Source of the DNA: a virus
Lineage: Duplodnaviria > Heunggongvirae > Uroviricota > Caudoviricetes
Reading direction: 5' to 3' (one strand)
Length of the DNA stretch: 13,680 nucleotides
IMG/VR virus record: IMGVR_UViG_2706794665_000009
Positions 2,880 to 13,680 of this stretch are shown in pieces. Below the pieces are notes generated by a model. That model was given only the letters and a program-made list of their open reading frames with translations. It was not told the origin of the DNA and did not search any database. How positions within the stretch are numbered: position 1 is the stretch's first letter; each line of letters begins with the position of its first letter. Position numbers and translations under genes: made by a program.

Positions 2880-5800
2880 ATGGGAAAAGGTGGCGGTAAG
2901 GCACACACGCCTCGTGAGGCGAAGGATAATCTCAAATCCACGCAGATGATGAGCGTGATTGATGCGATTGGTGAGGGACCGATAGAAGGTCCGGTGAAGG
3001 GACTGCAGAGTATCCTGGTGAACAAAACCCCGCTGACGGACACGGACGGTAATCCCGTGATACACGGTGTGACGGCGGTCTGGCGCGCCGGGGAGCAGGA
3101 GCAGACACCACCGGAAGGCTTTGAGTCCTCCGGTGCTGAAACCGGACTGGGCGTGGAAGTGACGAAGGCAAAACCGGTGACGCGCACCATTACGTCCGCG
3201 AACATTGACCGCCTGCGGGTTACCTTCGGGGTGCAGTCACTGGTGCAGACCACGTCAAAGGGTGACCGAAACCCGACATCCGTCCGCCTGCTGATTCAGT
3301 TACAGCGTAACGGTAACTGGGTGACAGAAAAGGATGTCACCATTAACGGCAAGACCACCTCGCAGTTTCTGGCGTCGGTGATTCTGGATAATCTGCCTCC
3401 CCGTCCTTTTAACATCCGGATGGTCCGGGAGACAGCGGACAGCACCACGGACCAGCTGCAGAATAAGACGCTGTGGTCGTCATACACCGAAATCATCGAT
3501 GTGAAACAGTGCTACCCGAACACGGCCATTGTGGGGCTGTAGGTGGATGCGGAGCAGTTCGGCGGCCAGCAGATGACGGTGAACTACCATATCCGCGGTC
3601 GCATCATCCAGGTGCCGTCAAACTATGACCCGGAAAAACGCACGTACAGTGGTATCTGGGACGGCAGTCTGAAACCGGCATACAGCAACAACCCGGCCTG
3701 GTGCCTGTGGGACATGCTGACTCACCCGCGCTACGGCATGGGAAAACGTCTGGGGGCGGCGGATGTGGACAAGTGGGCGCTGTATGCCATCGGGCAGTAC
3801 TGCGACCAGACGGTCCCGGATGGTTTCGGGGGGACCGAGCCGCGGATGACCTTTAATGCGTACCTGGCACAACAGCGTAAGGCGTGGGACGTTCTCAGTG
3901 ATTTCTGCTCTGCGATGCGCTGTATGCCGGTATGGAACGGTCAGACGCTGACGTTCGTTCAGGACCGCCCGTCGGATGTGGTGTGGCCGTACACCAACAG
4001 CGATGTGGTGGTGGATGATAACGGCGTGGGATTCCGCTACAGCTTCAGTGCCCTGAAGGACCGGCACACGGCGGTGGAGGTGAATTACACCGACCCGCAG
4101 AACGGCTGGCAGACCTCCACGGAACTGGTGGAAGACCCGGAAGCCATACTGCGCTACGGACGCAACCTGCTGAAGATGGACGCGTTCGGCTGTACCAGCC
4201 GCGGTCAGGCCCACCGTGCCGGACTGTGGGTGATAAAGACCGAACTGCTGGAAACGCAGACGGTGGATTTCACGCTCGGGTCTCAGGGGCTGCGGCACAC
4301 ACCCGGTGACATCATTGAAATCTGTGATAACGACTATGCCGGGACCCTGACCGGCGGACGTGTCCTGTCCATTGATGCTGCCACCCGCACCCTGACGCTG
4401 GATCGTGAAGTGACACTTCCGGAGACCGGTGCCGCCACGGTGAACCTGATTAACGGCAGCGGTAAGCCGGTGAGTGTGGACATCACCGAACACCCCGCGC
4501 CGGACCGGATACAGGTCAGTACCCTGCCTGATGGTGTGGAGACATACGGGGTGTGGGGACTCTCCCTGCCGTCACTGCGCCGTCGCCTGTTCCGCTGTGT
4601 CTCCGTCCGGGAAAACACGGACGGCACCTTTGCCATCACGGCGGTGCAGCACGTACCGGAAAAAGAAGCCATCGTGGATAACGGTGCCCGCTTTGAGCCG
4701 CAGTCAGGTTCCCTGAACAGCGTCATCCCACCGGCAGTGCAGCACCTGACGGTGGAGGTGAGCGCAGCTGACGGACAGTATCTGGCGCAGGCGAAATGGG
4801 ACACGCCGCGGGTGGTGAAGGGTGTGCGCTTCAGTCTGCGCCTGACCAGTGGTAAGGGAACGGATGCCAGACTGGTGACCACCGCCATCACCGCAGACAC
4901 GGAGCACCGTTTCAGCGGCCTGCCGCTCGGGGAATACACCCTGACGGTGCGGGCGATAAACAGCTATGGCCAGCAGGGTGAACCTGCCACCACCACATTC
5001 CGGATTGCCGCACCGGCAGCACCGTCGCGGATTGAGCTGACGCCGGGCTATTTTCAGATAACGGCGGTCCCGCGTCTTGCGGTGTATGACCCGACGGTAC
5101 AGTTTGAGTTCTGGTTCTCGGAAAAGCGGATTACCGATATCAGGCAGGTTGAAACCACAGCACGCTATCTTGGCACGGCGCTGTACTGGATAGCCGCCAG
5201 TATCAATATCAAACCGGGCCATGATTATTACTTTTATATCCGCAGTGTGAACACCGTTGGCAAATCGGCATTCGTGGAGGCTGTTGGTCAGCCGAGTGAT
5301 GATGCATCCGGTTATCTGGATTTTTTCAAAGGCGAGATAGGGAAAACCCATCTGGCTCAGGAGCTGTGGACGCAGATTGATAACGGTCAGCTTGCGCCTG
5401 ACCTGGCTGAAATCAGGACGTCCATTACGGATGTCAGCAATGAAATCACGCAGACCGTCAATAAAAAACTGGAAAATCAGAGTGCGGCAATCCAGCAGAT
5501 ACAGAAGGTTCAGGTTGATACAAATAATAATCTGAACAGCATGTGGGCTGTGAAGCTGCAGCAGATGCAGGACGGACGCCTTTATATCGCGGGTATTGGT
5601 GCCGGTATTGAGAACACCCCTGACGGCATGCAGAGTCAGGTGCTGCTGGCGGCAGACAGGATTGCGATGATTAATCCTGCGAATGGCAACACAAAGCCGA
5701 TGTTTGTTGGTCAGGGCGATCAGATATTCATGAACGACGTGTTCCTGAAACGCCTGACGGCTCCCACCATTACCAGCGGCGGTAATCCTCCGGCATTTTC

Positions 5801-6353
5801 CCTGACACCGGACGGAAAACTGACCGCTAAAAATGCAGATATCAGTGGCAGTGTGAATGCGAACGCCGGGACGCTCAACAATGTCACAATTAATGAGAAC
5901 TGTCAGATTAAGGGGAAACTGTCAGCCAACCAGATTGAAGGCGATATAGTCAAAACAGTGGGTAAGGCTTTTCCGCGGGACTCCCGGGCACCGGAGCGGT
6001 GGCCATCAGGGACCATTACCGTCAGGATTTATGACGATCAGCCTTTTGACAGGCAAATTGTTATTCCGGCGGTGGCATTCAGCGGCGCTAAACATGAGCG
6101 GGAGAATAACGATATTTATTCGTCATGCCGCCTGATAGTACGGAAAAACGGTGCTGAAATTTATAACCGTACCGCGCTGGATAATACGCTGATTTACAGT
6201 GGTGTTATTGATATGCCAGCTGGTCGCGGCCACATGACGCTGGAGTTTTCGGTGTCAGCATGGCTGGTGAATAACTGGTATCCCACAGCAAGTATCAGCG
6301 ATTTGCTGGTTGTGGTGATGAAGAAAGCCACCGCAGGCATCAGTATCAGCTGA
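2880..6353 (+). pseudogene. J: Host specificity protein J (central tail fibre / tail tip), full length but interrupted by an in-frame TAG at 3540-3542
   Basis: Track ORFs 2880..3542 (220 aa) and 3543..6353 (936 aa) are in the same frame, separated only by TAG. The combined 1157-codon product matches lambda gpJ end to end as recalled (MGKGGGKAHTPREAKDNLKST... through ...[23 protein letters not shown]... to the C-terminus). SD-like AGGGGAAGG precedes the ATG at 2880. Confidence 0.9.
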
Positions 6354-6420: not shown

Positions 6421-7020
6421 ATGCGTAAAGTTTGTGCAGCCATTTTGTCCGCAGCCATCTGTCTGTCCGTATCCGGTGCGCCTGCATGGGCGTCTGAACA
6501 TCAGTCCACACTGAGCGCGGGGTATCTTCATGCCCGTACGAACGCTCCCGGCAGCGATAATCTGAACGGGATTAACGTGAAATACCGTTATGAGTTTACG
6601 GACGCGCTGGGGCTGATTACGTCCTTCAGTTATGCCAATGCTGAGGATGAGCAAAAAACGCACTACAGCGATACCCGCTGGCATGAAGATTCTGTGCGTA
6701 ACCGCTGGTTCAGCGTGATGGCGGGGCCGTCTGTACGCGTGAATGAATGGTTCAGCGCGTATGCGATGGTGGGTGTGGCTTACAGCCGTGTGTCGACTTT
6801 CTCCGGGGATTATCTCCGCGTAACTGACAACAAGGGGAAAACGCACGATGTGCTGACCGGAAGTGATGACGGTCGCCACAGCAACACGTCTCTGGCGTGG
6901 GGGGCTGGCGTGCAGTTTAACCCGACCGAATCCGTAACCATTGACCTTGCTTATGAAGGTTCCGGTAGTGGCGACTGGCGAACGGATGCATTTATTGTTG
7001 GTATCGGATACCGTTTCTGA
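6421..7020 (+). CDS. lom: Lom outer-membrane beta-barrel protein (Ail/Lom/PagC/OmpX family), prophage moron
   Basis: 199-aa ORF with a signal-peptide-like N-terminus (MRKVCAAILSAAICLSVSGAPAWA) and a C-terminus ...AYEGSGSGDWRTDAFIVGIGYRF matching lambda Lom as recalled; same position as lambda lom between J and stf; GAGAGG SD upstream. Confidence 0.92.
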   Translation: MRKVCAAILSAAICLSVSGAPAWASEHQSTLSAGYLHARTNAPGSDNLNGINVKYRYEFTDALGLITSFSYANAEDEQKTHYSDTRWHEDSVRNRWFSVMAGPSVRVNEWFSAYAMVGVAYSRVSTFSGDYLRVTDNKGKTHDVLTGSDDGRHSNTSLAWGAGVQFNPTESVTIDLAYEGSGSGDWRTDAFIVGIGYRF

Positions 7021-7171: not shown

Positions 7172-10100
7172 ATGACAGTAAAAATTTCTGGCGTGCTTAA
7201 AGATGGCACAGGAAAACCAGTACAGAACTGCACCATTGTGCTGAAGGCCAGACGAACCAGCAGCACGGTGGTGGTGAACACGGTGGCCTCTGAAAATCCG
7301 GATGAAGCCGGACGTTACAGCATGGATGTTGAGCATGGTCAGTACAGCGTCACCCTGCTGGTTGAAGGTTTTCCGCCTTCACATGCCGGGACCATTACCG
7401 TCTATGAAGGTTCCAGATCAGGTACGCTGAATGATTTTCTCGGTGCCATGACGGAGGATGATGTCCGACCGGAGGCACTGCGCCGCTTTGAGCAGATGGT
7501 GGAAGAGGTGTCACGTAACGCCTCCGCGGTTGCACAGAATACGGCAGCCGCGAAAAAATCAGCCAGCGATGCCAGTGCATCAGCCAGCGAGGCGGCAACT
7601 CATGCAACCGATGCTGCAGCCTCAGCACGTGCCGCCAGCACGTCAGCCGGACAGGCCGCGTCGTCGGCTCAGTCAGCGTCTTCCAGCGCAGGAACGGCAT
7701 CGACAAAGACCCGTGAAGCAGCAAAAAGTGCTGCTGCTGCAGAGTCATCAAAAAGCGCGGCAGCTACCAGCGCCAGTGCCGCGAAAACGTCAGAAACGAA
7801 TGCCGCAGCATCACAAAAATCGGCAGCCACTTCTGCATCCACAGCGACCACGAAGGCGTCAGAAGCTGCCACCTCGGCACGGGGTGCGGCGGCCTCAAAA
7901 GAGGCAGCGAAATCTTCAGAAACGAATGCATCATCAAGTGCCAGTAGTGCAGCTTCCTCGGCAACGGCGGCAGGAAATTCCGCGAAGGCGGCAAAAACGT
8001 CCGAGACGAACNNNNNNNNNNNNNNNNNNNNNNNNNNNNNNNNNNNNNNNNNNNNNNNNNNNNNNNNNNNNNNNNNNNNNNNNNNNNNNNNNNNNNNNNN
8101 NNNNNNNNNNNNNNNNNNNNNNNNNNNNNNNNNNNNNNNNNNNNNNNNNNNNNNNNNNNNNNNNNNNNNNNNNNNNNNNNNNNNNNNNNNNNNNNNNNNN
8201 NNNNNNNNNNNNNNNNNNNNNNNNNNNNNNNNNNNNNNNNNNNNNNNNNNNNNNNNNNNNNNNNNNNNNNNNNNNNNNNNNNNNNNNNNNNNNNNNNNNN
8301 NNNNNNNNNNNNNNNNNNNNNNNNNNNNNNNNNNNNNNNTGCTTCAAAAGATGAGGCGACCAGACAAGCGTCAGCAGCGAAAGGTAGTGCCACGACAGCA
8401 ACAACGAAAGCATCAGAGGCGGCAGGCAGTGCGACGGCTGCATCTCAGAGCAAAGTTGCTGCTGAATCCGCGGCAACGCGCGCCGAGACAGCAGCAAAAC
8501 GGGCAGAGGATATTGCATCCGCCGTGGCGCTGGAGGATGCGAGCACGACGAAAAAGGGGATAGTACAGCTCAGCAGTGCAACAAACAGCACCAGTGAAAA
8601 GCTGGCGGCAACGCCAAAGGCAGTTAAAACTGTTAAAGATAGTTCAGTTCAAAAAACTGGCGACACAATGGGAGGGCAGTTAAAAATCAGCACGATAAAT
8701 GCTCTTCGAATATTCAACCAAGCCTTTGGCCTTATTTTTAGGCGTTCCGAAGATCATCTTCATCTTATTCCGACTAATGAAGGGGAGGGGGAAAATGGAG
8801 ACATCGGTTCATTAAGACCATTCTCTATAAACTTAAGATCAGGGTTGGTGTCCATCGGTAATGGACTAAAAGTTGGTGGTAGTGTTACTGGTAATTTGAC
8901 CGGAAACGCAGATACTGCGACCAAGATCAAGACAGCACGTAAGATTGGGGGCGTGGCATTTGATGGATCGGCAGATATCAACTTGCCTGGAGTCAACGCT
9001 ACCGGTAATCAAAACACTACAGGTAATGCTGCGACCGCCACGAAACTTCAGGCAGCCAGAACGATTAACGGTGTGTCATTTGATGGTAGTGCAAATATCA
9101 CATTGACCCCTTCAAATATTGGGGCATTGGCATTAACTGGAGGGACTCTTTCAGGTGGTTTAACTGCTGCTGGTGAGGTTATTTCAAGGTCAGCAAATGG
9201 TCTGCGTATTGCCTATGGCAACTATGGATTCTTTATCCGAAATGATGGATCAAACACATATTTTATGTTGACAGATTCGGGTAACAGTCTTGGTACGCAC
9301 AATAGCTTAAGGCCGTTTATAATTAGTAACCATACTGGCAATGTTACAATTGCAACTAAATTAAACGCGAGTGGTGGTATCACTGGATCTTTATCGGGTA
9401 ATGCAAGCACAGCAACCAAATTGCAAACTGCAAGGACAATTAACGGCGTAAAATTTGACGGCTCGGCAAATATTGAAGCGTTTCCGCCAGGTGTTCCGCT
9501 GCCGTGGCCATCAGATACACCACCTGCAGGTTATGCAATCATGCAGGGGCAGACGTTTGATAAGGCAGCATATCCGAAACTGGCTATTGCCTATCCTTCA
9601 GGTGTTATTCCAGATATGCGCGGCTGGACAATCAAGGGCAAACCCGCCAGTGGCCGGGCCGTATTGTCTCAGGAACAGGACGGCATAAAATCGCACACCC
9701 ACAGCGCCAGCGCATCCAGTACGGATTTGGGGACGAAAACCACATCGTCGTTTGATTACGGCACTAAATCCACGAATAACACCGGGGCGCATACGCACAG
9801 TCTGAGTGGCTCTACGGGGTCTGCCGGTGTTCATACTCATGGTAATGGTATTCGTTGGCCAGGAGGCGGCGGTTCTGCGTTAGCATTTTATGATGGCGGT
9901 GGGTTCACTTATGTCCAGAATTCACAGTATCAAGTAAGCCCGGAGACTTCTTCCTATAGATCGTATTATCAACGTATTCAGACACAGTCAGCAGGTGCTC
10001 ATACCCACTCGCTGTCTGGTACTGCAGCAAGTTCTGGCGCACATGCACATACTGTAGGTATTGGTGCGCATACGCACTCCGTTGCGATTGGTTCACATGG

Positions 10101-10185
10101 ACACACCATCACCGTTAACGCTGCGGGTAACGCGGAAAACACCGTCAAAAACATCGCATTTAACTATATTGTGAGGCTTGCATAA
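7172..10185 (+). CDS. stf: Side tail fibre protein Stf; interrupted by an N-run (8012-8339) with a reading-frame change across it
   Basis: N-terminus [28 protein letters not shown]... and the Ala/Ser/Thr-rich repetitive region match lambda Stf as recalled. After the gap the product continues in a different frame (codons from 8341; track ORF 8524..10185) with ...[42 protein letters not shown]..., three tail-fibre repeats (TATKLxxARxIxGVxFDGSAxI) and a His-x-His-rich tip ending ...[22 protein letters not shown]. Confidence 0.88.
8012..8339. other. Unresolved sequence (328 N) inside the repetitive part of stf
   Basis: Run of N; length is not a multiple of 3, and the stf frame differs on either side. 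Confidence 1.
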
Positions 10186-10769
10186 TGGCATTCAGAATGA
10201 GTGAACAAGCACGGACCATAAAAATTTATAATCTGCTGGCCGGAACTAATGAATTTATTGGTGAAGGTGACGCATATATTCCGCCTCATACAGGTCTGCC
10301 AGCAAACAGTACCGATATTGCACCACCAGATATTCCTGCTGGCTTTGTGGCTGTTTTCAACAGTGATGAGGCATCGTGGCATCTCGTTGAAGACCATCGG
10401 GGGAAAACGGTTTATGACGTAGCGTCAGGGGACGAGTTATTTATTTCTGAACTCGGTCCGTTACCGGAAAATGTTACCTGGTTATCGCCGGAAGGGGAGT
10501 TTCAGAAGTGGAACGGCACAGCCTGGGTGAAGGATACGGAAGCAGAAAAACTGTTCCGGATCCGGGAGGCGGAAGAAACAAAAAACAACCTGATGCAGGT
10601 AGCCAGTGAGCATATTGCGCCGCTTCAGGATGCTGCAGATCTGGAAATTGCAACGGAGGAAGAAACCTCATTGCTGGAAGCCTGGAAAAAGTATCGGGTG
10701 TTGCTGAACCGTGTTGATACATCAACTGCACCTGATATTGAGTGGCCTACGAACCCTGTCAGGGAGTAA
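10185..10769 (+). CDS. tfa: Tail fibre assembly protein Tfa
   Basis: 194-aa ORF ([44 protein letters not shown]...) near-identical to lambda Tfa as recalled; start overlaps the stf stop (TAATG). Confidence 0.93.
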
Positions 10770-10818
10770 TCATTGGGATTATGCCGCAGCACGTCTTAAG
10801 CAAGAACGTGCTGCGGTT
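10608..10818 (+). repeat. Direct repeat copy A (~211 bp): tfa 3' end plus ~50 bp downstream including a hairpin
   Basis: Aligns without gaps across the coding part to 11657-11868 at roughly 85-90% identity by eye, with scattered substitutions. Confidence 0.85.
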
Positions 10819-10832
10819 GGATGCTATTTTTT
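10783..10832 (+). terminator. Intrinsic terminator downstream of tfa (11-bp stem plus T-run), convergent with the methyltransferase 3' end
   Basis: ccgcagcacgt (10784-10794), loop cttaagcaaga, acgtgctgcgg (10806-10816), then tggatgcTATTTTTT. Confidence 0.55.
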
Positions 10833-11492
10833 CCCTGAAGCGGAAAACATTACTACAGTACCTTGAACCTTGGTTTTAACATTCTCGAAATGCTCTGAGA
10901 GTATATGTGTTAAGCCTTCTTCGGAATCTTTTGTGTTTGAAAAGATGCCTTTCTGATTGTAAATGCGCATCAGTTTTTGACCGAAGCTATTGTGCACAAC
11001 TCCATCGCCAAGAATTGTGGCTCCGTATAGAGTTCCATCGTCAGTTAAGGCCTGCGCCGCATTGCGTATTACACAGCTTTTTGTAGATATATTTCCAGGC
11101 AGGCAGTGAAGAAGGTAAAACATGGAAATGGAATCAAATTGACCATGTAACGCCGCGGGATAAGGTTCAAAAACATCATGGCTAATTTTATGTTTAATTT
11201 TTGATTCCCCAGCCCTTGTAGATGCCGCGTTCAGGCTAGCTTCGTTCAAATCCATTAAAGATATCAGACTACTCTCAGGTACGTGAGTAAGGTAAAACCC
11301 AGTTCCAACACCAATATCCAGATGGTTGTTACCTAAATGTTCCAGAAAGTGTGGAAGAAGGTGTTCCTTTGTAGGACATCCCCATGCAAGCCGATTTGAT
11401 ACTCCCAAAACCCACCAGTCATAAAGCTTTAGGGTAAGTGGTGTGTAAATTTTAGCCCCATCATCTGTGTTTTTTTTCATTGATTTCACCAT
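10824..11492 (-). CDS. Class I (Rossmann-fold) SAM-dependent methyltransferase, substrate unknown; AT-rich moron
   Basis: 222-aa ORF on the - strand with motif I (HLDIGVGTGFY), a downstream acidic motif (LISLMDLNEA) and motif II-like FDSISMFYLLHCLP. No DPPY/NPPY or PCQ motif, so not an obvious DNA methyltransferase. Visibly more AT-rich than the flanking tail genes. A second ATG at 11480 (MKKNTDDG...) has a better SD-like GGTGA and may be the true start. Confidence 0.8.
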   Translation of the reverse strand: MVKSMKKNTDDGAKIYTPLTLKLYDWWVLGVSNRLAWGCPTKEHLLPHFLEHLGNNHLDIGVGTGFYLTHVPESSLISLMDLNEASLNAASTRAGESKIKHKISHDVFEPYPAALHGQFDSISMFYLLHCLPGNISTKSCVIRNAAQALTDDGTLYGATILGDGVVHNSFGQKLMRIYNQKGIFSNTKDSEEGLTHILSEHFENVKTKVQGTVVMFSASGKK

Positions 11493-11548: not shown

Positions 11549-11818
11549 ATGCTGCCGCAGCATAGCGATATTGAAATAGCCTGGTATGCTTCGATACAGC
11601 AGGAGCCGAATGGCTGGAAGACCGTCACCACACAGTTCTACATCCAGGAATTCAGTGAGTATATTGCGCCACTGCAGGATGCAGTAGATCTGGAAATCGC
11701 AACGGAGGAAGAAAGATCGTTGCTGGAGGCATGGAATAAATATCGGGTATTGTTGAATCGTGTTGATACATCAACTGCACCTGATATTGAGTGGCCTGCA
11801 AATCCTGTCAGGGAGTAA
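11549..11818 (+). CDS. Tfa-like C-terminal domain ORF (89 aa), probably a remnant of a second tfa allele
   Basis: C-terminal 55 aa (...[53 protein letters not shown]) are homologous to the Tfa C-terminus at 10605-10769; the N-terminal 34 aa are unrelated to the Tfa N-terminus. Confidence 0.5.
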
Positions 11819-11868
11819 TCATTGGGATTATGCCGCAGATACGTCGTATGCAGGAACGTGCTGCGGTT
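11657..11868 (+). repeat. Direct repeat copy B (~212 bp), partner of 10608-10818
   Basis: Same as copy A; homology ends at ...gaacgtgctgcggtt in both copies. Confidence 0.85.
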
Positions 11869-12229: not shown

Positions 12230-12459
12230 TTAAAACCGCATCAACCTTTCCACCAATTGTTCTTTACGGGCAACGATCCACCCATGTTGCTCCAGATAAA
12301 ATTTAAACCGTTCCAGAGTGCATACCATCGCATCGGCGGGGACTTTTTCTGTGAACTCGACCTGACCGTGTTTATCGAAGTGGATCAGTAATGCGCATCC
12401 ATTATTTGGGGCGGGGGAGTTTTGTGCTGCAGGAGGACGTTTGTGGAGTTCTTCTTCCA
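12230..12459 (-). CDS. C-terminal ORF fragment on the - strand emerging from the N-run; possibly the 3' part of the Rha-like gene
   Basis: Open frame ...IHFDKHGQVEFTEKVPADAMVCTLERFKFYLEQHGWIVARKEQLVERLMRF with stop (complement of 12230-12232). It is in a different frame from the Rha-like 5' part if the gap is exactly 270 nt. Confidence 0.3.
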
Positions 12460-12729
12460 NNNNNNNNNNNNNNNNNNNNNNNNNNNNNNNNNNNNNNNNN
12501 NNNNNNNNNNNNNNNNNNNNNNNNNNNNNNNNNNNNNNNNNNNNNNNNNNNNNNNNNNNNNNNNNNNNNNNNNNNNNNNNNNNNNNNNNNNNNNNNNNNN
12601 NNNNNNNNNNNNNNNNNNNNNNNNNNNNNNNNNNNNNNNNNNNNNNNNNNNNNNNNNNNNNNNNNNNNNNNNNNNNNNNNNNNNNNNNNNNNNNNNNNNN
12701 NNNNNNNNNNNNNNNNNNNNNNNNNNNNN
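12460..12729. other. Unresolved sequence (270 N) inside the Rha-like gene region
   Basis: Run of N. Confidence 1.
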
Positions 12730-13007
12730 CCAGTAAATCCCATTACGAGGAACATGAAGCCGTCTTTTGTGATCAGGTAGCATCGTGATTCACGTTCTGC
12801 GCCGTTGCCAATTTCGACAGTCTGAACATCGGCCGAAAAGTTGGCTGATGTAAATTCGGGAGAGCAGTCGAGTGTGTCAATCTTAGCTAAAACGTGTTTA
12901 TGTTGTTTATCGAAGTAGTCGGCAACAGCTTGAGAGGTGGTAACCAGGCGACCATCTTTGAAAAAGACTTTTGGTGACTCGTTAGAAAAAGTTATAGCTG
13001 TATTCAT
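12730..13007 (-). CDS. Phage regulatory protein, Rha family (antirepressor-like), N-terminal part; 3' end in the N-run
   Basis: ATG at 13007 (- strand) preceded by GGAG with 9-nt spacing; product MNTAITFSNESPKVFFKDGRLVTTSQAVADYFDKQHKHVLAKIDTL...CYLITKDGFMFLVMGFT resembles the Rha/pRha N-terminal domain as I remember it. Confidence 0.6.
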
Positions 13008-13032
13008 ATGTGATGACTCCAATTAATTGGAT

Positions 13033-13066
13033 GATCACCACCTCTGACGCCAATCAGGGAGGTGGT
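13033..13066. repeat. 10-bp perfect inverted repeat with 14-nt spacer, 26 bp upstream of the Rha-like start (candidate operator or 5' UTR hairpin)
   Basis: tcaccacctc (13033-13042) and gaggtggtga (13057-13066) are exact reverse complements. Confidence 0.45.
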
Positions 13067-13582
13067 GAGACGTACAGGGTTGGCGTAACCGGTCATCACA
13101 AAACCCGGCGCGGATTTCTCCGCCCCTGCACGCCCCACCATAATGCGAATGTGGCAATGCTTAACGCAAAAAAAACCGCAAACGCGGCTATGCGTTGTGA
13201 TGTTATCCGAGACGCCAATCCCGACAACCGATTTTGCGGTTGTGTGAGGAATATAGCCCCGGAGAACAAAAACTGTCAACGGGCAAAAAAATTTCCGTTA
13301 TCAGGAATGTATAAAATTAAAGCGATCGAGCAAAAAATCCTTTCTGCAAAACTAAAAAAGATTTCAATAAAATCAGGCAGTTAAAAACACGGAAAACGGT
13401 ATAAAAAAGCGCCTCAAAATCCTGTTTTTTCTTTCAGATACAATGTCTTATTGCATTTTTTAAAACATGTCAGTGTGGTACATGGATATCGATACCATCG
13501 CCAATTATAAACTGGGCGGTGCACAGCAACATGATAGCGTACGCCTCGATCCGTGGGTGTTTATGTTCTCAGCAGGATATCG

Positions 13583-13680
13583 GGTAATGACTCCAACTTA
13601 TTGATAGTGTTTTATGTTCAGATAATGCCCGATGACTTTGTCATGCAGCTCCACCGATTTTGAGAACGACAGCGACTTCC
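13583..13680 (-). mobile_element. IS1 insertion sequence, terminal 98 bp (right end, inverted orientation); remainder lies beyond the window
   Basis: From 13583 the + strand reads GGTAATGACTCCAACTTATTGATAGTGTTTTATG..., the reverse complement of the IS1 right terminal inverted repeat as recalled; the - strand encodes the InsB C-terminus. Confidence 0.9.
13598..13680 (-). CDS. insB: IS1 transposase InsB, C-terminal fragment (5' part outside the window)
   Basis: - strand translation ...KSLSFSKSVELHDKVIGHYLNIKHYQ with stop (complement of 13598-13600), matching the InsB C-terminus as recalled. Confidence 0.85.
   Translation of the reverse strand, partial: KSLSFSKSVELHDKVIGHYLNIKHYQ

Follow-up and report, generated by a model that had tools for sequence, protein, structure and literature searches.

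The closest described counterparts of the locus studied here are the J gene of phage lambda and its laboratory amber mutants. In lambda, tail-tip assembly depends on J from its very first step, and lysates of J amber mutants on sup0 (non-suppressing) hosts lack tails. The lambda sus mutants, including the Jam alleles, are reportedly due to Campbell, and the lambda tail assembly pathway is said to have been worked out by Katsura. The Jam (sus) mutants carry a single nonsense codon in J without a frameshift, make a truncated product, and came from mutagenesis followed by selection on a suppressor host. A second point of reference is the defective prophages of Shigella and E. coli, in which inactivating point mutations and small indels occur in late genes. 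The architecture of lambda gpJ itself has been described: the FNIII-A domain (residues 72–215) sits between strand β4 and strand β13 (residues 216–223) of the HDII-insertion domain, which is common to lambda gpL and gpJ, and hub domains are distributed differently among phages (PMC10721106).

This study focused on a lambda-like prophage of Shigella sonnei in a stretch of 13,680 nucleotides, analysed in full and here called the window (IMG/VR record IMGVR_UViG_2706794665_000009), which is contig CWSW01000109.1 of the draft assembly GCA_001252695.1. Two further S. sonnei contigs were found to encode the same truncated, 220-aa J product and to carry the same TAG codon, UIQA01000050.1 of GCA_900487305.1 (L005), which is free of gaps, and CABWEN010000078.1 of GCA_902504195.1 (L007). 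The prophage is integrated at ompW and adjoins the ompW 3' remnant and yciE, as in E. coli relatives. The features of the window that bear on the J gene and its neighbours are listed below.

175–504, + strand: gene M (from gene calls and the annotation of relatives)
504–1202, + strand: gene L (from gene calls and the annotation of relatives)
from 1213, + strand: gene K, broken only by the N gap at 1807–2055; 247 aa and intact in L005
1807–2055: run of N, 249 nt; the real length in L005 is 247 nt
ending at 2536, + strand: gene I, broken only by the N gap at 1807–2055; 193 aa and intact in L005
2880–6353, + strand: gene J, tip attachment / host-specificity protein of a lambda-like prophage; 1157 codons plus TGA, with one in-frame TAG
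2880–3542, + strand: ORF of the N-terminal J fragment, 220 aa, deposited as CSE47391.1 / SVI48018.1, 'host specificity protein [Shigella sonnei]'
3540–3542, + strand: amber codon TAG replacing the ancestral CAG (Gln221); the mutated base is the T at 3540
3543–6353, + strand: remainder of J, 936 codons, still open, with hub domains, FNIII-1/2, central fibre and receptor-binding domain
6421–7020, + strand: lom, intact in gap-free L005
7172–10185, + strand: stf, side tail fibre, with an N gap at 8012–8339; intact in gap-free L005
8012–8339: run of N, 328 nt; the real length in L005 is 341 nt
10185–10769, + strand: tfa, intact in gap-free L005
12460–12729: run of N, 270 nt; the real length in L005 is 50 nt

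The three runs of N are taken to be scaffold gaps of estimated size, because their lengths differ from those in L005, and they cause the splits of K and I, of stf and of rha that appear among the open reading frames of the window; these splits were accordingly ruled out as lesions. In L005, the 19 other genes are all open and the TAG in J is the only in-frame TAG in 20 genes, with no lesion in any other tail gene.

Read codon by codon, positions 3528–3557 of the window are ATT GTG GGG CTG TAG GTG GAT GCG GAG CAG. An ORF of 220 codons runs from the ATG at 2880 to the TAG, beyond which the J frame stays open for a further 936 codons to the TGA at 6351–6353, so that translation of 2880–6353 meets a single internal stop. 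Intact gpJ genes of 3474 nt are held by E. coli relatives, and the window J has no indel relative to intact J genes. An earlier note, made from the letters alone, had described an amber codon splitting an otherwise full-length J gene, and its coordinates, frame, peptide context and fragment length of 220 aa all proved right when set against the sequence, the ORFs and the translation.

With the stop read as Gln, a phmmer search against PDB aligned residues 1–834 of the window J with residues 1–836 of 8iyk chain J (E = 0), and residues 865–1156, the C-terminal fibre and receptor-binding part, also matched this chain (E = 1.6e-97). The window J is colinear with the structures of lambda gpJ (PDB 8iyk, 8iyl, 8k35, 8xcg and 8xci) across the hub and the C-terminal fibre and receptor-binding region, and both share the same series of Pfam domains. 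In the window these are FNIII-A_GpJ (PF24801, residues 86–207) in the 220-aa piece, and Phage-tail_3, Ig_J, Ig_J_second, Phage_Tail_Tip and Ig_GpJ_C (PF13550, PF24421, PF24489, PF09327 and PF12421) in the 936-aa piece, all matches exceeding the curated cut-offs. The window J differs from lambda gpJ in that the central fibre (around residues 835–864) and the receptor-binding part diverge, as is usual for mosaic J genes, and in that the allele is truncated at residue 220. The alignment with 8iyk chain J is free of gaps around residue 221, where lambda has Q in the context NTALVGVQVDSEQFG, and the statement in the earlier note that lambda has a sense codon here was therefore sound. Colinear similarity, the domain series and the gene order M-L-K-I-J-lom-stf-tfa all place the gene with gpJ, while an uninterrupted full-length frame is lacking in the window because of the in-frame TAG at 3540–3542. 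Judged by its sequence, the window J is a nonsense allele of what is, by descent, a gpJ gene, and the TAG is evidently one stop inside a strongly supported gene of 1157 codons and no chance ORF boundary.

Residue 221 falls inside strand β13, since that strand comprises residues 216–223 (PMC10721106). The 220-aa fragment keeps the first strands of the HDII-insertion domain, FNIII-A and most of β13, and is without HDII, HDIII, HDIV, FNIII-1/2, the central fibre and the receptor-binding domain.

The ancestral codon is CAG: over 121 nt around the site, the T in place of C is all that separates the window from E. coli ATCC 25922 and from phage CP-1639, both of which read CAG at this codon. With a longer query of 601 nt, the T was the single mismatch to ATCC 25922 and to about 20 other complete genomes, and E. 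coli UID2309220041 (L003) also has CAG at codon 221. Among 135 J homologues sampled from IMG/VR by their match to a codon-degenerate version of the site context, CAG occurs in 134 and CTG in the remaining one, with no stop in any of them. The closest comparison is provided by S. sonnei itself. The J protein of L005, if given Gln at residue 221, is exactly the 'host specificity protein J [Shigella sonnei]' of 1157 aa (P0017; EAA2016261.1 and others), which was found on 30 contigs, and five of these intact loci were compared at the nucleotide level. The intact P0017 prophage has the same gene order and integration site as the amber prophage, and its J protein is identical to that of L005 except at residue 221 (CAG, Gln). 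Over about 18 kb, L005 and the intact loci L145 and L147 differ by only 2 nt, one of which is the amber T; at the stop, L005 thus departs from the intact allele of the same prophage by a single base without a frameshift. These comparisons upheld both the CAG that the earlier note had guessed and the first of its explanations, a recent CAG-to-TAG change without a frameshift. The other difference lies in stf, at L005 position 15266, within the N gap of the window at 8012–8339, where L005 has A and L145 and L147 have G, as does L143; the A may be another marker for the amber sublineage.

The TAG allele recurs in the three separately deposited S. sonnei assemblies, which may be re-assemblies of the same or related reads. 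L007 matches L005 without a difference over 12.3 kb, and likewise matches the window wherever the two overlap, and the 18 differences between L005 and the window are clustered and all lie outside the amber region. Elsewhere the allele is rare. A 41-nt megablast query centred on the T, which seeds on the TAG allele only, gave no hit in 5,426 complete E. coli genomes containing about 15,000 copies of the J segment, and the lack of a 100% match among complete E. coli genomes can be put down to the origin of the window in S. sonnei. Degenerate-codon pattern scans likewise found no TAG at codon 221 in GTDB species representatives, IMG/VR or JGI metagenomes, and the control pattern with CAG gave at least 120 matches in IMG/VR, showing that the scan works. 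With 30 contigs carrying CAG to only three carrying TAG, and 2 nt of difference in about 18 kb, the amber allele is a derived, minor variant of an otherwise clonal S. sonnei prophage. The TAG is therefore not a sequencing error confined to one assembly, nor is it conserved or programmed.

Taken together, these observations very probably reflect a real, recent and lineage-restricted change from CAG to TAG at codon 221 of J that has left a newly defective prophage in S. sonnei. A C-to-T transition would have turned the Gln codon into an amber codon in the prophage at ompW. In a host without an amber suppressor, translation would stop after 220 residues, inside β13 of the HDII-insertion hub domain, and the sole product expected would be a dead-end fragment of this length. 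After induction, such a prophage would be predicted to yield DNA-filled heads but no functional tails, because lambda cannot begin tail-tip assembly without gpJ, which also binds the receptor. Inferred from lambda genetics, the prophage is most likely unable to form infectious particles, and it would be on the way from a newly defective prophage to a pseudogene-bearing remnant. The resemblance to lambda Jam mutants is close, with the differences that the S. sonnei allele is a spontaneous one of wild isolates, whereas the Jam alleles were obtained by mutagenesis and suppressor-host selection, and that the phage is a relative of lambda and not lambda itself.

It could be argued that the mutation is real but that J function is rescued, whether by an amber-suppressor tRNA of the host, by basal readthrough of UAG, or by a co-resident lambdoid prophage from which J is supplied or repaired. 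A suppressor of the supE/glnV44 type inserts Gln, which is also the ancestral residue, and a Gln-inserting suppressor would restore the native protein exactly, as with a lambda Jam mutant. Readthrough of UAG in enterobacteria inserts mainly Gln, and three J chains suffice per virion; for these two reasons the amber allele could be leaky, and a little full-length J might be made at the low natural rate of readthrough. The rest of J and all neighbouring tail genes are intact, and J homologues usually occur in several copies per genome (the J segment has a median of 2 copies per genome among E. coli genomes carrying it), so that co-resident lambdoid prophages could supply J in trans. However, an intact downstream ORF is expected just as much of any very recent mutation, with only 2 nt of difference in 18 kb. 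There is no tRNA gene on the prophage contigs (window, L005 and L007), amber suppressors are laboratory alleles that are rare in wild isolates, and the rarity of the allele, with three contigs against 30 intact ones, gives no sign of its maintenance. Rescue of any of these kinds is accordingly considered unlikely. Were it to occur, the S. sonnei allele would be a 'sus' allele of natural origin, comparable to the lambda Jam mutants made in the laboratory. Reassignment of TAG to Gln, or a phage-encoded suppressor tRNA, is excluded because no tRNAs are present on these contigs, the in-frame TAG is the only one in 20 genes, and TAG is a genuine stop elsewhere, ending the methyltransferase gene. 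Programmed readthrough was also rejected, the stop not being conserved among orthologues, of which 134 of 135 sampled in IMG/VR have CAG.

The window is a draft short-read scaffold, and some suspicion of its base calls is natural. Its three runs of N are all off in length (249 vs. 247, 328 vs. 341 and 270 vs. 50 nt), such genomes contain J segments in several copies, and there is an odd patch within J itself. At 5231–5627 (J codons around 784–916), the window has 13 clustered substitutions relative to every other S. sonnei copy, whether amber or intact, two of them non-synonymous (V787I and A915D). The remainder of J in L005 is identical to the intact S. sonnei allele, and the L007 contig stops at a point corresponding to window position 5212, just upstream of the cluster. 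The best match to the patch among E. coli genomes was 98.8%, leaving its source unmatched there. It looks like either a consensus mixed with a paralogous copy of J or a gene-conversion tract, and is probably chimeric. The base-level quality of the window is consequently open to some doubt, given the draft scaffold, the three N gaps and this patch.

If the true base at 3540 were C, J would be intact and the TAG an artefact of sequencing or assembly. Against this, the same T is present in two further deposited assemblies, one with a different 3' part of J and the other broken into contigs differently, and this recurrence in three assemblies makes a sequencing error, which the earlier note had offered as an option, an improbable account. 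The 600 nt around 3540 otherwise match intact alleles, so no mixing with a paralogue is visible near the site. Nor was any TAG-bearing paralogue that might act as a contaminant found in E. coli complete genomes, GTDB representatives, IMG/VR or JGI metagenomes. An error at this base is therefore regarded as very unlikely.

That the gene is functionally split, with translation restarting at the GTG at 3543 or the ATG at 3573 and the pieces of 220 and about 930 aa co-assembling into a working tail tip, is scarcely credible. In favour of such a split, the hub protein pb3 of T5 offers a precedent, its counterpart in lambda being naturally spread over gpL, gpI and gpJ; a GTG that might serve as a start follows the stop immediately; and hub domains, including the HDII-insertion domain of gpL and gpJ, are spread over different proteins in different phages (PMC10721106). 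Against it, no orthologue with the same split was found in E. coli genomes, GTDB representatives, IMG/VR or JGI metagenomes; the earlier note had named orthologues that stop at this point and are followed by a gene with its own start as the finding that would overturn its interpretation, and none turned up in any collection scanned. No ribosome-binding site above background was detected by anti-SD pairing at 3543 or 3573, where the values of -4.7 kcal/mol (GTG 3543) and -5.0 kcal/mol (ATG 3573) are within the background of in-frame J positions (-3.4 +/- 2.3, with 37% at or below -4). Rather than falling at a domain boundary, the break cuts through a β-strand (PMC10721106), and nothing has evolved to support a restart, since the flanking sequence is as in intact alleles. 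The start of the downstream piece has been annotated both at GTG 3543 (936 aa, CSE47397.1, in GCA_001252695.1) and at ATG 3573 (926 aa, SVI48017.1, in GCA_900487305.1), a conflict that is to be expected where there is no genuine start signal. An independently initiated downstream cistron was rejected on the combined grounds of no split orthologue, no SD signal and a break within β13 (216–223). There remains only a slim chance that the prophage persists either as a leaky phage releasing rare infectious particles or, through a restart at the GTG, as one with a two-piece working hub; if either were true, this would be a natural case of a prophage attenuated through one recodable stop codon.

With a recent nonsense mutation as the preferred reading, the phenomenon is ordinary prophage decay in a clonal, pseudogene-rich pathogen, which is of a kind already known and involves no new mechanism. 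Compared with typical decayed prophages, however, the amber prophage is at the very first step, with a single lesion and its other tail genes intact. An independent lesion was seen in another S. sonnei copy, L146 (GCA_018488885.1), in which a 7-bp tandem duplication, CCTCTGA CCTCTGA, at about 4505–4518 frameshifts the tail gene T and J is intact. This fits with relaxed selection on the late genes of the prophage, and suggests that they are drifting without selection in S. sonnei. The J amber codon and the gene T duplication of L146 together give a small, dated view of how prophage inactivation begins in a clonal pathogen. For annotation, the consequence is that CSE47391.1 and CSE47397.1 are halves of one nonsense-mutated J and should be a single annotated pseudogene. 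Beyond this the allele has little significance and opens no new mechanistic question, although the amber SNP could be used as a lineage marker. The C-to-T change at 3540 also abolishes a PstI site at 3537–3542 (CTGCAG to CTGTAG), and this loss would provide a simple PCR-RFLP assay for the allele. The mutated C lies in CTGCAGG, preceded by G, and not in CCAGG, and a deamination hotspot at a Dcm site (CCWGG) was rejected on that basis.

Two further features were noticed downstream of the tail-fibre genes. A direct repeat of about 89% identity links window positions 10604–10818 and 11653–11868, the former being the 3' part of tfa and the latter a second, truncated tfa copy. The two copies flank a gene on the opposite strand for a class I SAM-dependent methyltransferase (10824–11492), and in annotated relatives the repeat is followed by a DUF4376 remnant; the repeat may be left over from an alternative tail-fibre cassette. 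Between the end of the tail-fibre genes and the ompW 3' remnant lie a rha-family regulator (about 12230–13279, - strand) and ash (about 13465–13590). S. sonnei shares this region with E. coli strain 729 (L004), but E. coli UID2309220041 lacks it; it gives the impression of a small independent element, or of a remnant, at the attachment site in ompW.
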